From Gemmatimonadota bacterium (GTDB lineage Bacteria > Gemmatimonadota > Gemmatimonadetes > Longimicrobiales > Gaopeijiaceae), in the NCBI GenBank assembly GCA_039590375.1, contig JBDHFN010000004.1, forward strand, positions 577 through 64,576: a stretch of DNA of 64,000 nt, read 5' to 3'. How positions within the stretch are numbered: the first letter of the stretch is position 1; each line of letters begins with the position of its first letter. The notes beneath the pieces were generated by a model. It was not told where the DNA came from and made no database searches. It saw only the letters and a program-made list of their open reading frames with translations. A program made the translations under genes and the position numbers. Of this stretch, positions 29,105 to 63,888 are shown piece after piece.

Positions 29105-31234
29105 CTATTCGAAGGAGCCAGGAACCGCCTCCTCCAGTTCGGCGGCCATGTCCTCGGCTCGCCGCATGAGAGACACGTCGAGTTCGTAATCAGGGACGTC
29201 GGCGGCCTGTAGTTTGCCCACAAACTCACGAGCCTCACGTCCGGACAGGCCGAACTCCTTAAAATCTTCCAAAGCGACACTCTCGCCTCCCTCCCTCGGC
29301 CGAACGCCCTCCGCATCGGCCTCCAGTAGACGCCGCAGAACGTCCATTTCCCCGCGGCTCATGGGGTGCGCGCGGACATTGTAGTCGATCCACGCCTCGT
29401 AGCTGAGCGGGGCCACCCTCTTGAGCATGCCCGCCATTACTCGCGCGAACTCCTGTATCTCCCACTGCGCGTGCGGGTCCGCCCGTAGCGTCAGGAAGTG
29501 GAAGAGGTTGTGGAGATCGATTTTCCAGTACCACTGCGTGTACGTGGAAAGGGGCAGGTCGATGCGGGCCAGTTCTCGCGCCACTTCCTCCTCGACCATC
29601 CATCGGTACCCGTCGGACGCTTCCTCACGCACGCGGTCCCAGTGCTCGATCGCCTTCTTGTACAGATCCGCCGAGGCGGGGTCGGGCCGCCGGCCCTGGT
29701 GGTTCTCCGGGCTTTGAAGAGCGAAGTGGTCGAGGTCCGGTTTGTAGAAGAGGAGGGGCATCAACGAATAGCGGCCCGAATACTCATTAACCGAGTTGTG
29801 AGTGACGATGCCGTTGGCGATAAAATTGTGGGACGGGCCTTCGACCTCCAGATCGTAGGTCTCGCGCATCCCCACGTACTCGAAACGCTCTACGCGGACG
29901 AGGCGAGTGTTGGTGAGCTTGTTCCACGCCACTCGCGGCCGCTTCTGCCATTCCGATCGGATGGGGCCTCCACCCAGTCGCTCGACGTATTCCAATTCGT
30001 TCCCTGTGACGCTTCGATGGCAGGGCCCACATAGGGTCGTGAGGTTATGCAGCTCTCTGGCCTTCGACTCGTCCGCCCAGACTGGGATGATGTGGTGGCA
30101 GTGCAGCTCATCCGCCCTCTGAGCACACAGCTGACAGGTCCATCCATTCTCGGCGTGGATCTTGGGGGCGACCTGCGTGGTCCATCGCCCTATGGCGCTC
30201 CGCTCGGAAGAACCCCCACCGCGCCAGAAGTTGGAAGCGGCTCCACTCCGTGATCTCTGGTTCGCGGCTAGCCACTCGGCGGAGAGTCTGCGAGGCCCTA
30301 GCTCGTAGGTGAGGTCCCTGTTCCACGGGGAATCGCCGTCGGAGAAGCGTCCACGACTCGGATCGGTAAGTTCGTGGCGCGTCAGCCACTTTCTGATGGT
30401 GTGGTATGAGACTCCGCAATCCTCCGCGATGTCCCGGATGTCGCGGCGCTGTTCAGTGTACTGTCGCTCAAGCCACGCCTTGTCCTGATAGAGCGCTGGG
30501 GCTTCGGCTACGAGGCCATTCACATGGACGTAGTGGTCTCCAGCCCGCCATACGGCCTTCCCGTTCTTCTCCTCGACCCCTGTGGCCTGATGAAGCGTGC
30601 TCCAGCCCTCGGCGAATCTGAAGCGGTGGTCCGCAGTCGCCGTGATCTCTTTCCCGTCGGCAAGCACCAGGCGGAATACGTGCTTGGGGCCGTTCTTGAA
30701 GGCGTCCACGACTCGGGTATGGCCTATCCGTCCCGTCTCCTCATCCATCTGACGCAGTCGCATCCCCTTCACACGGTCACGCCGGAAGTACGGATTCCTC
30801 TGCTTATCGGGACGGTGGCGGTTGGCGGTCGGCTGAAATCTCTTCCAGACTTCCTCGATGGGGAGCTTGTACAACTGATTCCCCCGTCGTCGGATGCCTC
30901 CGGGGAGGTCGAAATAGATCTCGGTTCCCTCGGCCAGGCATGCCGTTCTGTGCCGTATCCACTGACGCGCCACGAACATGGGCATGGCGCAGTGGAACTT
31001 GAGCTCGACCATTTCACTGGGCGTCGTGTGATGGTGGCGCCGCAGATAACGAATGAGTCCGCGCGTCTGGCTCACTTTGCGGGTCCCGTACCCGTAGCTG
31101 ACCCGCGCCGCCCGCTCGACGTCCTCGTCCGAGCCCATGTAGTCCACGAGCGAGACGAATCCGTGGTCCAACACTGGGAAATATCCCCCGAGGATTTCCT
31201 CGGCGGCCGGATTGGTGGGGCGCTTCGTTTCCAT
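29105..31234 (-). CDS. thyX: FAD-dependent thymidylate synthase ThyX, interrupted by an in-frame intein
   Basis: ATG at 31234 (METKRPTNPAAEEILGGYFPVLDHGFVSLVDYMGSDEDVERAARVSYG...). The ThyX motif is split as RHRTA | intein | SVNEYSGRYS. Extein total is about 327 aa. The track ORF extends to 31708, but that extension lacks ThyX similarity. Confidence 0.9.
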   Translation of the reverse strand: METKRPTNPAAEEILGGYFPVLDHGFVSLVDYMGSDEDVERAARVSYGYGTRKVSQTRGLIRYLRRHHHTTPSEMVELKFHCAMPMFVARQWIRHRTACLAEGTEIYFDLPGGIRRRGNQLYKLPIEEVWKRFQPTANRHRPDKQRNPYFRRDRVKGMRLRQMDEETGRIGHTRVVDAFKNGPKHVFRLVLADGKEITATADHRFRFAEGWSTLHQATGVEEKNGKAVWRAGDHYVHVNGLVAEAPALYQDKAWLERQYTEQRRDIRDIAEDCGVSYHTIRKWLTRHELTDPSRGRFSDGDSPWNRDLTYELGPRRLSAEWLAANQRSRSGAASNFWRGGGSSERSAIGRWTTQVAPKIHAENGWTCQLCAQRADELHCHHIIPVWADESKARELHNLTTLCGPCHRSVTGNELEYVERLGGGPIRSEWQKRPRVAWNKLTNTRLVRVERFEYVGMRETYDLEVEGPSHNFIANGIVTHNSVNEYSGRYSLMPLLFYKPDLDHFALQSPENHQGRRPDPASADLYKKAIEHWDRVREEASDGYRWMVEEEVARELARIDLPLSTYTQWYWKIDLHNLFHFLTLRADPHAQWEIQEFARVMAGMLKRVAPLSYEAWIDYNVRAHPMSRGEMDVLRRLLEADAEGVRPREGGESVALEDFKEFGLSGREAREFVGKLQAADVPDYELDVSLMRRAEDMAAELEEAVPGSFE
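29795..30940 (-). mobile_element. Class-1 intein (382 codons) with an HNH homing-endonuclease domain, inserted in thyX
   Basis: Cys1 (TGC at 30940-30938; CLAEGTEIYF). Block B is ITATADHRF (TxxH). Blocks F/G are ETYDLEVEGPSHNFIANGIVTHN, ending in Asn at 29797-29795, with +1 Ser. Internal HTH-like RRDIRDIAEDCGVSYHTIRKWL. HNH zinc-finger CQLC..LHCHHIIP..HNLTTLCGPCH. Confidence 0.85.
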
Positions 31235-31523: not shown

Positions 31524-33377
31524 ATGACCACTCCTGGGGACAAGAGCTCCGGATCCCGCCGCCTCGCGGCGGTCTGGTTCGCAGATATCGTCGGGTTCAC
31601 TCGCCTGGCGGCGGAAAACGACACTCTGGCGCTTCGTCTGGTGGAGACCCTGCAGGCAGCCGCCACCGCGGCGGTCGAGAGCCACGAGGGCACGGTCGTC
31701 AAGTTCACGGGCGACGGTGTCCTGGCGGAGTTCGCGAGTGCCGCGGGCGCGGCCCTCGGCGGAATACAACTCCTCCTCCGATTTAGTCAACTCACGGAGG
31801 ACTGGCCGGAGGGACCACACCAGATCCGGCTGGGAATGCATCTTGGCGACGTCACCGTGGGCGCGGACGGCGATATCTACGGCGACGGCGTGAATCGAGC
31901 CGCTAGACTCGAGGGTCTGGCGGAGCCCGGAAGGCTCCTGGTCAGCGAAGACGTCTATCGGCAGCTTCGAAACCGCCCCGAGTTGATCCTGACAGAGCTG
32001 GGGGTGCGTACGGTAAAAGGGTACGACGATCCGCTCCTGGTCTACGATGCGGAGCCCACGGGGAAGCTCGCCGCGACCCTGCTTCGCGAGGCGACGACTC
32101 CCGAGCCTGCGGCCCAGGCCACCCACCCCCGACGTTCGGTTCGGCCGATCGCGGTCGGACTGGCGGTGGGGATTCTCTCCTTCGTCACTCTAGCGCTCTG
32201 GACGGCGATGGGAACGCCGAGCTCCGACACCCTGCCACTCTCGTCCGGGGCGGGAGCAGATGCGACCACCACTGCAGGTGAGATCCCCACTGCGGGTGGG
32301 GCACCCACGGTAGATGCGCCCACCGCAAACGGGACGCCCACCACAAATACGACGCCCGCCGCAAACGCTACCACGACCGCAGATTCGCCCCCCACCGTCG
32401 ATCCAAGGGTCGCCGAGTTACTGCGGAGGGGGCGTGACCAGTTGTCGCAGGGCACCCCGCGGAGCATGGCCACGGCCGCGGAGCTCTTTACGCGGTCCAT
32501 CGAGTTGGCACCCGACGACGCTCGAGCCCACCTGGGCCTGGCCGAGGCGCAGATGGGGCTCGGCAAGACAGGTGTTCGCCGACTCGGCGAGGTACTACCT
32601 CTTGCTCGAGGACACCTGGAAGACGCCATTCGTCACGACGCCGACCTGGCCGAGGCGCACGCCGCGTTGGCATCCCTTCTGGGCACCTTCCTGTGGGATT
32701 GGGAGGGCGCGGAACGGGAGTTCGAGACCGCGCTCGATTTGGCTCCAAGCCCCGCCGTCCATCGGGCCTTCGCTGAACTGCTCTCGTCTCGCGGGCGCCA
32801 CGATGAGGCCCTCGCCCAGGTGGCCATGGCCTCGAGTCGCGAGCCGGGCGCAGTGGCCAACGTCGGCGCCCAGGGCCTCGCCCTCTTCCGGGCTCGGAGC
32901 TACGCACGCGCCCGAGTGGCTCTGACCGAAGCACTTCGCCTCGACCCCACCGATGACCGCATCCGGGTCCACTTGGCGCGTACTCAGGGGATGCTTGGCG
33001 AACGCCAGCAGGCAAGAAGCACTCTCGAGGGTACGGACTCGGCGAACCGGAGCCCCTACCTACAGGTATGGAGCGCCCTCTTTCGCCCGACCACCCCTGG
33101 GGCGGGCCAAGCGCGTGGAAATCAACTCGTCCGGACGTTACGGCGAACCCTCGGTCCTTCGGAGGCCCGCAATCCCGACGCGCCCTACAACCTGGCCTCC
33201 CTCCAGCTGGTGCTCGGGGATCAGGCCGGAGCGGCCGAATCGCTCCAGCGGGCGGTACGCACCCCATCCCCATCCCTGATCTGGCTCGCCACGGATCCCC
33301 TTTGGGATCCCGTGCGATCCGACCCCGACTTCGAGAGACTCGTGCGGCTGATCGATGCGGGAGGGCGAACGCCCTGA
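31524..33377 (+). CDS. Class III adenylate/guanylate cyclase - TM - TPR-repeat protein
   Basis: Cyclase core AAVWFADIVGFTRLA...KFTGDGVLAEF...GDGVNRAARLE. One TM segment (IAVGLAVGILSFVTLALW). A Thr/Pro/Ala/Asn-rich linker. C-terminal TPR-like repeats. Confidence 0.85.
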   Translation: MTTPGDKSSGSRRLAAVWFADIVGFTRLAAENDTLALRLVETLQAAATAAVESHEGTVVKFTGDGVLAEFASAAGAALGGIQLLLRFSQLTEDWPEGPHQIRLGMHLGDVTVGADGDIYGDGVNRAARLEGLAEPGRLLVSEDVYRQLRNRPELILTELGVRTVKGYDDPLLVYDAEPTGKLAATLLREATTPEPAAQATHPRRSVRPIAVGLAVGILSFVTLALWTAMGTPSSDTLPLSSGAGADATTTAGEIPTAGGAPTVDAPTANGTPTTNTTPAANATTTADSPPTVDPRVAELLRRGRDQLSQGTPRSMATAAELFTRSIELAPDDARAHLGLAEAQMGLGKTGVRRLGEVLPLARGHLEDAIRHDADLAEAHAALASLLGTFLWDWEGAEREFETALDLAPSPAVHRAFAELLSSRGRHDEALAQVAMASSREPGAVANVGAQGLALFRARSYARARVALTEALRLDPTDDRIRVHLARTQGMLGERQQARSTLEGTDSANRSPYLQVWSALFRPTTPGAGQARGNQLVRTLRRTLGPSEARNPDAPYNLASLQLVLGDQAGAAESLQRAVRTPSPSLIWLATDPLWDPVRSDPDFERLVRLIDAGGRTP

Positions 33378-38150: not shown

Positions 38151-39200
38151 ATGAAGGCCTACACGCGGCGCAGGCTTCAGGCCTCGGTGAAGCTCGGGGT
38201 CGCCTCGATTCCAGCCTGGATGGCCCTGACGTTGATGCAGGGACGGGCGATCAATGCCGGAACGTTCATACTCTCCTTCGGCATCGGATTCGCCGTCGGG
38301 ACCGCTGAACTCTTCTTTCTCAGATCCTGGCTCCGACAACTCCCCTTCCTCTCACACTTGGCCGTGAAATCGCTGGCCATCACGGCGGTGATCTACGTTG
38401 CCGCCGCCCTCCTCAACATCCTGGACGTGATCATCGACGGGATGACGTGGCAGGCGTACGCAGACACGATCACGAGCGCCGAGTGGGCCTCAGGATTGGT
38501 CGAGGCGTTCGGCATGATCGCCTTCCTCCTCTTCTTCGTTCACCTCGACCGCCTCCTGGGCCCCGGCGTGTTGTTGGGGTACGTGACTGGGCGATACCAC
38601 CACCCCCATCGGGAGTCACGCATCTTCATGTTCCTGGATCTGAAGGGGTCCACTTCGCTGGCCGATGTGATGGACCCGGACCGGTACTTCGCCTTCTTGC
38701 ATCAATACTTCACGGAGATGTCGGACCCGATTCTCGAGACGAGCGCCGAAATCTACCAATACGTCGGCGATGAGATCGTCCTCTCCTGGAAGATGAAGAG
38801 CGGACTCGAGGAGGCCGGCTGCATCCGTGTGTTCTTTCTGATCGAAGACCAGATCCACGCGCACAGGGAGCGGTTCAGAACAGAGTACGGAGTGGTGCCC
38901 ACCTTCAAGGCTGGGGTCCACGCCGGCGACGTGATCACGGCCCAGATCGGTGAGCTCAAGAGCGAGATCGTCCACAACGGAGACGTGCTCAATACGACCG
39001 CCCGTATTCAAGGGCTCTGCAACGAGCTCGGTCACAAGCTCCTGGTGTCTGCGGAGCTCATGGACGAGCTGGAACTGGGACCAGAGTACGTGGTGGAGGA
39101 ATTGGGGCCCGTGGAATTGCGTGGAAAGGGGGAGGCGGCCAAGCTCTACGCGGTGAGTCGCGCAAATGGAAACCGTGATGTCCGGAGCGAAAGTTCCTAG
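38151..39200 (+). CDS. Membrane-anchored class III adenylate/guanylate cyclase
   Basis: GGAGGGAGGGAGG then ATG. About 4 N-terminal TMs. Cyclase core IFMFLDLKGSTSLA...YVGDEIVLSW...GDVLNTTARIQ. Confidence 0.85.
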   Translation: MKAYTRRRLQASVKLGVASIPAWMALTLMQGRAINAGTFILSFGIGFAVGTAELFFLRSWLRQLPFLSHLAVKSLAITAVIYVAAALLNILDVIIDGMTWQAYADTITSAEWASGLVEAFGMIAFLLFFVHLDRLLGPGVLLGYVTGRYHHPHRESRIFMFLDLKGSTSLADVMDPDRYFAFLHQYFTEMSDPILETSAEIYQYVGDEIVLSWKMKSGLEEAGCIRVFFLIEDQIHAHRERFRTEYGVVPTFKAGVHAGDVITAQIGELKSEIVHNGDVLNTTARIQGLCNELGHKLLVSAELMDELELGPEYVVEELGPVELRGKGEAAKLYAVSRANGNRDVRSESS

Positions 39201-60392: not shown

Positions 60393-62336
<1,944 letters not shown>

Positions 62337-62389: not shown

Positions 62390-62704
62390 TCACGATCCGT
62401 CTCCCTCCATCAGCGTCAGAACGATCCGATCGATCGTCCCCTCCCCTCCCAACTCGTCATTGACCCGATCCAACAGGGCCTTCTTCATGAGGCTCAATTC
62501 CATGAGCCAGGCGCTACTCCGAACCTCGACGAACAGCGTGGACGCTACCACCGTCCTCGCGTTCGTCACTTCGGCAATCTTGTCGCCCACCGCACCCGGC
62601 CAGACGTCGAGCGCACCGATCCTCTCGATCTGCGTACCGACGCCGCGCTTCGCCAAGACACCATGGAGGAGATCCCCCACCCGCGTCGGCCCGACGTCGC
62701 TCAC
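62390..62704 (-). CDS. DUF721 (DciA-like) domain protein
   Basis: Sits between recF and gyrB as in many bacteria. W...VG..IA..T......G.L.V.V.SS.W..EL pattern. The GTG start at 62704 forms a GTGA overlap with the recF stop. Confidence 0.7.
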   Translation of the reverse strand: MSDVGPTRVGDLLHGVLAKRGVGTQIERIGALDVWPGAVGDKIAEVTNARTVVASTLFVEVRSSAWLMELSLMKKALLDRVNDELGGEGTIDRIVLTLMEGDGS

Positions 62705-63888
62705 GCGCAGATCCGTCCATCCTTGATACCCCATCGGGGAAGCACATCTCCCTGCAGCGGGACGTCGCTCTCTTTGGGCGCCGTGAGGATGACCTGGCCG
62801 AAGCGGCCTAGCCCCATCAGCCCGAGCACTCTCTCCCTCCTGGCGTCGTCCAACTCGGCGAACGCGTCGTCGAGAAGGAGCACCGGAGCGCTGTCCCTCG
62901 CCTTGCGGATCGCATCCCCCTCGATCAACCGGAGCGCGAGCGCCACCGTCCGGCGCTGGCCACCCGACCCGAACTCTCTCACCTCCATCTCGCTTTGGCC
63001 GTCCACCAGCGCGAGCAGGAGTTCGTCCCGATGCGGTCCCGCGCTCGTGCTCTTCCGCCGAAGATCGACGGTCCAGCGGCTATCCAGGGCAGCTCGGCAC
63101 GCCCGGTAGATGCCATCGTCCTGCCAGTCGTCCACGGGGACCTTGGGAACGTAGGTCATCGTCGCCGAGTCTCCCCCACTCACCTCCTCGTAGTATCCAC
63201 GGAAGGCATCCCGCCACTCGGCGATCCATCGGTGCCGAGCACCCATCACGGTCGCGGCGCTCCGAGCCAGGGGCTCGTCCCACGCCCGTACCACCTCTAC
63301 AGGCTGTTCCTTACGAAGGGCCGCGTTCCGCTGGGCCAGCGCGTGCCGAAAGGCCTGAAGAGCAGCCAGGTATCCGTCCTGGTTCAGCGAAAGGGCCACG
63401 TCCATGAATCGGCGGCGGCGCACGGGTCCCTCGTTCACGATGCCGACATCGGCCGGCGAGAAGATCACGGCGCCCAGCTTCCCGATCGCGTCCCCGATGC
63501 GCTCGGGCTCCACACCGTCGATGGTCACCTTTCGACGACCACTCGATCCTTCATACGCGGCCGCGACCTCGGTCGGAGAGTCCCCGCCGTCATCCGTTGA
63601 GACGACTCGACCGGCCACCCGGAAGACATCCTCCCCAAACGTGATAAGGTGCTCCATGCGCGCGCCACGAAACGAACGGAACGTCTCCAGATAGTAGATG
63701 GCCTCGAGCAGGTTGGACTTCCCTTGAGCGTTCGCGCCTATAAGGGCCACGCCCCCTGGCGGGAAGGAAAGCTCCTGGTCACCGAGGTTTCGAAAGAACC
63801 GAAGTTTCAGCACGCTCAGGTGCAAGGAATCGATGCCAGGGAAAGCCTTGAAATCATGAGGAAATTTAACCGTGCGAGGGCCCTGCAA
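62701..63888 (-). CDS. recF: DNA replication and repair protein RecF
   Basis: LKLRFFRNL, Walker A GANAQGKSNLLEAI, signature SGGQRRTVALALRL, Walker B LLLDDAFAELD. The true start may be the TTG at 63825 rather than the ATG at 63888. Confidence 0.92.
   Translation of the reverse strand: MQGPRTVKFPHDFKAFPGIDSLHLSVLKLRFFRNLGDQELSFPPGGVALIGANAQGKSNLLEAIYYLETFRSFRGARMEHLITFGEDVFRVAGRVVSTDDGGDSPTEVAAAYEGSSGRRKVTIDGVEPERIGDAIGKLGAVIFSPADVGIVNEGPVRRRRFMDVALSLNQDGYLAALQAFRHALAQRNAALRKEQPVEVVRAWDEPLARSAATVMGARHRWIAEWRDAFRGYYEEVSGGDSATMTYVPKVPVDDWQDDGIYRACRAALDSRWTVDLRRKSTSAGPHRDELLLALVDGQSEMEVREFGSGGQRRTVALALRLIEGDAIRKARDSAPVLLLDDAFAELDDARRERVLGLMGLGRFGQVILTAPKESDVPLQGDVLPRWGIKDGRICA

Follow-up and report, generated by a model that had tools for sequence, protein, structure and literature searches.

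Inteins in ThyX thymidylate synthases have been described from several sources, and ThyX is already listed among the common intein hosts in surveys. The bacterial COG1351 thymidylate synthase accounts for 21 inteins, found in Actinobacteria and Cyanobacteria only (Novikova et al., PMC4760082), and thymidylate-synthase inteins are also listed in cluster C1 phages (Kelley et al. 2016 mBio, PMC5050341). In-frame HNH nucleases are reported in those of actinophages (2025 preprint, bioRxiv 10.1101/2025.01.02.630785), and HNH inteins in general, a minority, go back to Dalgaard et al. 1997 according to the papers that cite that work. A related ThyX intein, Ter ThyX, splices in E. coli at ~100% efficiency (PMC3620165). 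Here we analyze a 64,000-nucleotide (nt) stretch of a Gemmatimonadota bacterium (GCA_039590375.1, contig JBDHFN010000004.1, positions 577 to 64,576, forward strand; hereafter the window) in which the chromosomal thyX gene is interrupted in frame by 382 codons. Judged by its sequence features, the insertion is very probably a class-1 intein that carries a helix-turn-helix (HTH) plus HNH homing-endonuclease module.

The thyX gene comprises the following parts, given in window coordinates:

29105..31234, minus strand: thyX precursor gene (N-extein, intein and C-extein), 709 codons plus stop; from the open reading frame (ORF), ThyX hidden Markov models (HMMs) and 709-residue homologues
30941..31234, minus strand: N-extein, ThyX residues 1-98, ending ...FVARQWIRHRTA; aligns to 6j61 chain residues 7-87
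29795..30940, minus strand: intein, 382 residues, Cys1...His-Asn, a precise in-frame insertion; from the ORF, HMMs and contiguous DNA in intein-less orthologues
29108..29794, minus strand: C-extein, ThyX residues 99-327, with Ser+1 first (SVNEYSGRYS...); aligns to 6j61 chain residues 87-240

The longest mechanical form of the ORF ending at 29105 on the minus strand starts at a GTG at 31708 and encodes 867 residues. We favor the ATG at 31234 because the homologues are 709 residues long and share the N-terminus METKRPT. The intein occupies residues 99-480 of this 709-residue protein, equivalent to 257-638 of the 867-residue ORF; it begins CLAEGTEIYF, ends GIVTHN and separates Ala98 (X2) from Ser99 (X3) in RHR-X7-S, the motif that binds deoxyuridine monophosphate (dUMP). 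An earlier note on this DNA had put the insertion at 29795-30940, with 382 codons and residues 257-638, and these figures prove exact to the base. It had also proposed that the insert splits RHR-X7-S and that the flanks rejoin as RHRTASVNEYS. Translation bears this out: in-silico removal of the intein joins ...WIRHRTA to SVNEYSGRYS..., restoring RHRTA/SVNEYS (a slash marks the insertion point) in a product of 327 residues.

The flanks behave as a single ThyX once joined. Pfam Thy1 matches the precursor at E=6e-47 in two separated stretches, and the thyX equivalog match on the unspliced precursor is likewise divided in two, whereas the spliced 327-residue extein gives one continuous match to NCBIfam thyX (TIGR02170) over residues 26-233 (172.4 bits, cut-off 87.9). 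The ThyX structure 6j61 aligns to the flanks over chain residues 7-87 and then 87-240, gapless at the junction. The N-extein differs from its close relatives at 0-1 amino acids, with a ratio of nonsynonymous to synonymous divergence (dN/dS) of 0.00-0.02. Extein residues 234-327 (window 29108-29389) form a C-terminal extension of ~95 residues past the TIGR02170 model; the 327-residue length of this extended ThyX is kept across the clade, and 6j61 covers the extension in part only. Within the 64-kb window we found no second thyX, no second copy of the intein and no thyA, the thyA query being an approximate E. coli sequence.

The two ends of the insertion carry the splicing domains:

30506..30940, minus strand: N-terminal Hint lobe, intein residues 1-145; TIGR01445, predicted local distance difference test (pLDDT) 85-94 over residues 60-145, Foldseek matches to DnaB and RecA inteins
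within the N-terminal Hint lobe, minus strand: block A, intein residues 1-10
30620-30646, minus strand: block B, ITATADHRF, intein residues 99-107
29795..29971, minus strand: C-terminal Hint lobe, intein residues 324-382; TIGR01443 at 31.3 bits, pLDDT 84-94
29822-29863, minus strand: block F, ETYDLEVEGPSHNF
29795-29821, minus strand: block G, IANGIVTHN

Taken alone, the intein scores above cut-off against Pfam Intein_splicing (42.6 bits, cut-off 35.8), NCBIfam intein_Nterm TIGR01445 (27.5 bits, cut-off 24.5) and intein_Cterm TIGR01443 (cut-off 15.6). All 16 aligned inteins have the Cys1 nucleophile, which recurs in 118 of the 118 homologues, among 120 listed, in which the N-terminal junction is present. 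The block B TxxH reads T102-A-D-H105, with H105 invariant across the 16 inteins, as are H381 and N382 at the C-terminus (...YDLEVEGPSHNFIANGIVTHN/S). An AlphaFold model built from the same 16 aligned inteins (mean pLDDT 72, predicted template modelling score (pTM) 0.43) places the Hint core at intein residues 60-145 and 340-382 (pLDDT 85-94). Its top Foldseek matches in the PDB are the Ssp DnaB, Mtu RecA and Npu DnaB inteins, all at probability 1.0; DnaB inteins also match the insert in a search of PDB sequences. The class-1 hallmarks named in the earlier note (Cys1, the TxxH of ITATADHRF, a terminal His-Asn and Ser+1) are all present, and to them can be added the Hint fold and the precise in-frame insertion.

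Between the splicing blocks lies the nuclease module, which, together with an insertion in the N-terminal lobe and the flanks of the insertion point, supplies the candidate elements for DNA recognition and cleavage:

30356..30505, minus strand: helix-turn-helix module, intein residues 146-195; weak HTH_23 match, predicted three-helix unit
30383-30448, minus strand: HTH segment RRDIRDIAEDCGVSYHTIRKWL
30203..30355, minus strand: linker, predicted unstructured, intein residues 196-246, PWN...LGPR.LS...SNFW.GG...; pLDDT <50
29972..30202, minus strand: HNH (beta-beta-alpha-metal) nuclease, intein residues 247-323; Pfam HNH, invariant motif, Foldseek
30017-30136, minus strand: HNH motif C269-x2-C272...H282-H283...N299...C304-x2-C307-H308
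30761..30910, minus strand: basic 50-residue N-lobe insertion, intein residues 11-60; many invariant alignment columns
29759..30976, minus strand: presumed homing site, 36 nt either side of the insertion point; from junction comparison at 14 loci

The HNH segment matches Pfam HNH PF01844 at 30 bits (cut-off 21.4) with its motif intact, as the earlier note had held in assigning the intein an HNH nuclease instead of LAGLIDADG. The catalytic His, structural Asn, metal-binding His and paired CxxC zinc ligands are all in place, and the 16-intein alignment shows no variation in the family at C269, C272, H282, H283, N299, C304, C307 or H308. The model has a beta-beta-alpha unit at intein residues 247-323 (pLDDT ~70-78), and matches lower down the Foldseek list include the GVE2 phage HNH endonuclease 5h0m and the Cap5 HNH. 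Overall, the HMM signals for ThyX, the splicing regions and HNH are far above chance; the profile searches that the earlier note had suggested for these three families all return matches above cut-off, with both Hint-end profiles detected.

The HTH-like segment that the note had pointed out stands in part. A three-helix unit is predicted at intein residues 154-188 (pLDDT ~85) and HTH_23, HTH_28 or MerR matches are recorded for many relatives, but the Pfam HTH_23 score for the window intein (21.5 bits, E=2e-4) falls under the 24.6 cut-off. Downstream of it, the model has no confident structure at residues 196-244 (pLDDT <50), and a search of the linker with Pfam at E up to 1 returned no NUMOD-type or other known DNA-binding motif. 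W206, N207, Y212, G215, P216, R231, G233, S236, N237, W239 and G241 of this linker are invariant across the 16 inteins, and the segment may fold only on DNA. The N-lobe insertion is basic (14 Lys or Arg versus 5 Asp or Glu), has a pLDDT of 54-69 and is partly common to the mycobacteriophage inteins described below; it may be comparable to the DNA-recognition insertions of other homing inteins. The linker and the basic insertion are both conserved and probably help DNA recognition. The presumed nuclease target is the sequence that flanks the junction, whose 36-nt halves join directly in the intein-less alleles among the 14 loci compared.

We then compared the window intein with described ThyX inteins. 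A tblastn search of phage genomes recovers a homologous intein in mycobacteriophage ThyX, from Bixzunavirus (cluster C1; Cane17, Colt, Blubba, Norm, Gizmo and Lukilu) and from StAugustine. It has the same insertion point, before the Ser at X3 (StAugustine RHRIA/C...HN/SYNEES), and agrees with the window intein in its class-1 blocks and its in-frame HNH motif (C-x2-C...H...PV...NL...C-x2-C-H); the N-lobe insertion is shared in part. The window intein falls in the same insertion column as those of StAugustine and Cane17, although Cane17-type exteins have one additional residue between RHR and the insertion site. The earlier note had left open whether this site combined with an HNH nuclease had been described; the combination is present in these mycobacteriophage genes. 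The phage proteins as a whole are 31-34% identical to the window protein, their host ThyX belongs to a different subfamily, and their inteins are ~110 residues shorter, the HTH module being absent along with most of the conserved linker.

HNH inteins in cyanobacterial ThyX (Nostoc, Calothrix PCC 6303, Halomicronema, Picosynechococcus PCC 73109 and others) align end to end with the window intein at 31-34% identity (E 1e-59 to 1e-71) and share the Hint-HTH-HNH-Hint architecture by Pfam, the host enzyme and the motif. They differ in sitting five residues downstream, directly before the motif Ser (...FDVQ/SFRY), in their greater length (~445-455 residues) and in their host ThyX, a different subfamily with THR for RHR. 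We take the Ter ThyX intein of Trichodesmium to be probably of this group, including its insertion site. The LAGLIDADG inteins PI-SceI, PI-PfuI and Mtu RecA resemble the window intein in Hint fold, class-1 chemistry, a nuclease between the Hint lobes, insertion at a conserved active site and a homing cycle in which the nuclease decays to leave mini-inteins; the difference lies in the nuclease, which in the window intein is a zinc-finger HNH with paired CxxC, accompanied by an HTH. In RefSeq, the intein-containing thyX is labeled 'HNH endonuclease' in NC_054716.1 (gene 82), NC_041901.1, NC_021346.1 and Calothrix sp. PCC 6303 (P0501), a label that hides both enzyme and intein; the GenBank versions of the same phages read 'ThyX-like thymidylate synthase'.

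Searching representative proteins with the intein yielded 158 clusters at E<1e-30, whose named members include Acetothermia, Armatimonadota, cyanobacteria and Binatia. Of the 132 sequences inspected that have a recognizable C-terminal junction, all except one look ThyX-like there. Among the 150 nearest listed clusters, 87 have the insertion at the window's site, 9 two residues downstream and 27 five residues downstream, and a MAFFT alignment of the spliced exteins confirms three sites, before X3, before X5 and before the motif Ser. These neighboring positions (proteins P0234-P0382) suggest repeated retargeting within a six-codon stretch. Two proteins are unusual: P0357 (5631 residues) is matched by the intein over 10 separate stretches, with a C-terminal junction HN/TYISGN... 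that lacks ThyX context, and the ThyX intein of P0234 (1025 residues) spans residues 430-808, a position that implies either a fusion or a wrongly assigned start of this ThyX.

Close relatives of the window gene occur both with and without the insertion. A search with the spliced extein recovered intein-less ThyX proteins of 327 residues that are 91-94% identical and contain an uninterrupted RHRTASVNEYS; the spliced product aligns without a gap to these relatives and to 6j61, as expected in the earlier note, and native insertion, which the note had said would be indicated by homologues aligning through the segment, is contradicted by homologues that lack it. At the DNA level these alleles read ...ACGGCC/TCCGTGAAT... 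contiguously, with the intein an exact 1146-nt in-frame block; at locus L093 the junction is ...CGGCATAGAACGGCC/TCCGTGAATGAGTAT.... Because intein-less orthologues exist at 94% identity, the 382-residue segment is dispensable and precisely bounded. A scan of genome contigs with the extein kept 80 loci, with contiguous matches of ~981 nt that are apparently intein-less, and gave no named intein-carrying genome. The precursor, used as query, returned 120 listed homologues with inteins of 195-385 residues. Every listed homologue with both junctions present has RHRxA/C...HN/S at one site, and all those whose source is named are Gemmatimonadota or Longimicrobiales metagenome-assembled genomes.

On several contigs of these homologues and relatives, a full intein is found at L086, L088, L090 and L092, a 265-residue intein at L004, a 195-residue mini-intein at L095 and no intein at L093 and L094. 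The shared neighborhood on these contigs comprises NHL, DUF4159, amidohydrolase, thyX, DUF1207, a 176-residue protein, a histone-deacetylase-like protein, OmpA and Ada. The order at the window locus is DUF4159, amidohydrolase, a guanylate-cyclase/TPR gene, thyX, DUF1207, ZIP, OmpA, Ada and Dak2/DegV, and this locus is orthologous to the intein-less L005, with 80-90% nucleotide identity over ~16 kb. Two adenylate/guanylate-cyclase-domain genes lie near thyX, at 31524-33377 and 38151-39200 (both plus strand). The former, a TPR fusion between thyX and the amidohydrolase gene, is also present at L005 and absent from the otherwise syntenic L086, L088 and L093. Insertion sequence elements occur within a few kb of intein-bearing thyX at L088 (8049-9176), L090 (1983-3436) and L091 (247-3221); they encode DDE_3 and rve transposases, in tandem copies at L091, and none is found at the corresponding places in the window.

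One ENA contig (ERZ26167216:ctg495719, 2.75 Mb) has two thyX loci 1.8 Mb apart, L004:6001-7776 and L005:6001-7110. The L004 gene contains the 265-residue intein, which lacks the nuclease, and the L005 gene has no intein and reads RHRMVSLNEYS (ATGGTC/TCTCTA). The flanks of the two loci are only 67-72% identical. Either an old duplication, one copy of which is immune to homing, or a chimeric assembly could account for this contig.

Among relatives with exteins at least 90% identical to the window's, full, decayed, mini-intein and empty states coexist. In one full-length relative the HNH HCHH has become HCYH. In-frame deletions in others leave inteins of 348, 355, 321, 271, 247 and 245 residues and mini-inteins of 195 residues; all of these deletions fall inside intein residues 153-344, which hold the HTH, linker and HNH, and both Hint lobes are always kept. 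A simple Nei-Gojobori script was used to compare the window with four full-length relatives, giving dN/dS values of 0.08-0.17 over the entire intein, 0.07-0.18 over its HTH+HNH part and 0.08-0.12 over the extein; the HNH segment gives 0.06-0.12 in the window-versus-relative comparisons. Because of the low values for its HTH+HNH part, we conclude that the nuclease is under purifying selection in the Gemmatimonadota lineage.

Intein and extein diverge discordantly at one locus. Between the window and L092 the synonymous divergence (dS) is 1.57 for the extein and 0.69 for the intein, and between L090 and L092 it is 0.67 for the extein and 1.06 for the intein. This discordance is suggestive of at least one horizontal intein transfer and, together with sporadic occurrence among close relatives, is the pattern of a mobile intein. 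For the window against L086, L088 and L090, intein and extein dS are 0.51 and 0.54, 0.57 and 0.63, and 1.32 and 1.42, respectively.

We propose the following cycle, in which the splicing steps follow established intein chemistry. Translation would give a 709-residue precursor whose dUMP-binding loop is split and which would be unable to form the ThyX active site. An N-to-S acyl shift at Cys1 would produce a thioester, the Ser+1 hydroxyl would attack it so that the N-extein moves to Ser+1, and Asn382 would cyclize with the help of His381, freeing the 382-residue intein. An O-to-N shift would then remake the Ala98-Ser99 peptide bond and yield the 327-residue ThyX. The nuclease would be placed on DNA by the HTH, the conserved linker and probably the basic N-lobe insertion of the Hint domain. 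The freed HTH-HNH intein, whose nuclease is predicted to be active today, would cut or nick intein-less thyX where the DNA encodes the conserved motif, and recombinational repair would copy the intein into the cut allele.

Several points weigh against this reading. We infer splicing and DNA cleavage from conserved residues, confidence in the intein model is moderate overall with the linker left without structure, and the HTH_23 match is subthreshold. The case for transfer comes from a single locus, L092, with saturating dS and a simple script. Intein and extein dS nearly coincide in three of the four pairwise comparisons, which fits long vertical co-inheritance as well as it fits frequent homing. 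As for a vehicle, a single-sequence scan of IMG/VR gave no match, and the viral profile scan turned up no vector and nothing closer than distant relatives, which match most of the intein at 25-32% identity. These dS values and scans, along with the presence of the intein in all 120 best homologues, also fit an intein that still splices and no longer homes, inherited vertically, with an HNH that is kept for a reason other than mobility or has become idle recently. We regard this as a serious yet unlikely alternative. Purifying selection on the nuclease module requires a function, and empty alleles and decayed nucleases lie beside full inteins in relatives at least 90% identical, as a running homing cycle predicts; the L092 discordance also favors mobility.

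The position of the intein raises the idea that it was co-opted as a post-translational switch, in which conditional splicing, responding for example to redox state, temperature or DNA damage, would gate the synthesis of deoxythymidine monophosphate (dTMP). The indications are circumstantial: insertion within the substrate-binding motif of a dTMP-synthesis enzyme, the lack of a thyA-like gene or second thyX among the genes found in the 64-kb window, long-term maintenance under selection, and conditional splicing proposed for other inteins in the cited literature. Nothing specific in the sequence indicates a sensor, however, and close relatives live without the intein. Selfish inteins, moreover, generally insert in conserved active-site motifs, because DNA sites there are conserved and imprecise loss is lethal. 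We hold such a switch to be very improbable. The same goes for the broader proposal that one HNH+HTH intein lineage was repeatedly retargeted within six ThyX codons (X3, X5 and the motif Ser), spread across distant subfamilies and phyla, and also serves as a selected conditional-splicing gate on dTMP synthesis in Gemmatimonadota. It is scarcely credible that the 382 residues are a domain native to this ThyX lineage, or the disruption of a pseudogene, with no protein splicing, and no observation speaks for it. An unspliced insert would break the RHR-X7-S of the only thyX seen in the window, the reading frame is intact with low dN/dS, the insertion has a Hint fold, and intein-less orthologues at 94% identity mark it as dispensable and exactly bounded. 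All splicing-block residues are also present and invariant across relatives, and we rejected this explanation. A splicing-competent class-1 intein with a homing nuclease therefore remains our preferred account.

The remainder of the window is ordinary chromosome, including gyrB, recF, a fumarase, a pyridine nucleotide-disulphide oxidoreductase (Pyr_redox_2) and transporters. The 30 large window ORFs scanned include no transposase, no integrase and no further mobile element, in agreement with the earlier note, which had singled out the intein as the only evident mobile element. A tRNA scan of the window found none. The gyrB gene (60393-62336, minus strand, 647 residues) is uninterrupted, with no room for an intein, and adjoins a RecF-like SMC_N protein (62701-63888, minus strand). 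The gyrB and recF pair is typical of the replication-origin region, and in other phyla GyrB often hosts an intein.

The element belongs to an abundant and already catalogued kind, homologous HNH inteins being known from phages and cyanobacteria, and the finding leaves the current understanding of inteins unchanged. New here are the Gemmatimonadota host phylum, a larger HTH-plus-linker nuclease module than in the phage inteins at the same site, and a clean natural series from an active-looking intein to the empty site. We recommend that annotations name the gene thyX and mark its intein, instead of calling it a 709-residue 'HNH endonuclease', and that they give the 327-residue spliced product as the mature enzyme. 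Ter ThyX is already a candidate for protein engineering, and the Ser+1 mini-inteins of the family described here could join it. The three neighboring motif positions occupied across phyla could become a study system for the retargeting of HNH inteins. In Gemmatimonadota, orthologous loci offer an unusually complete snapshot of the homing cycle, with active-looking, point-inactivated, nested in-frame-deleted, mini-intein and empty alleles side by side.

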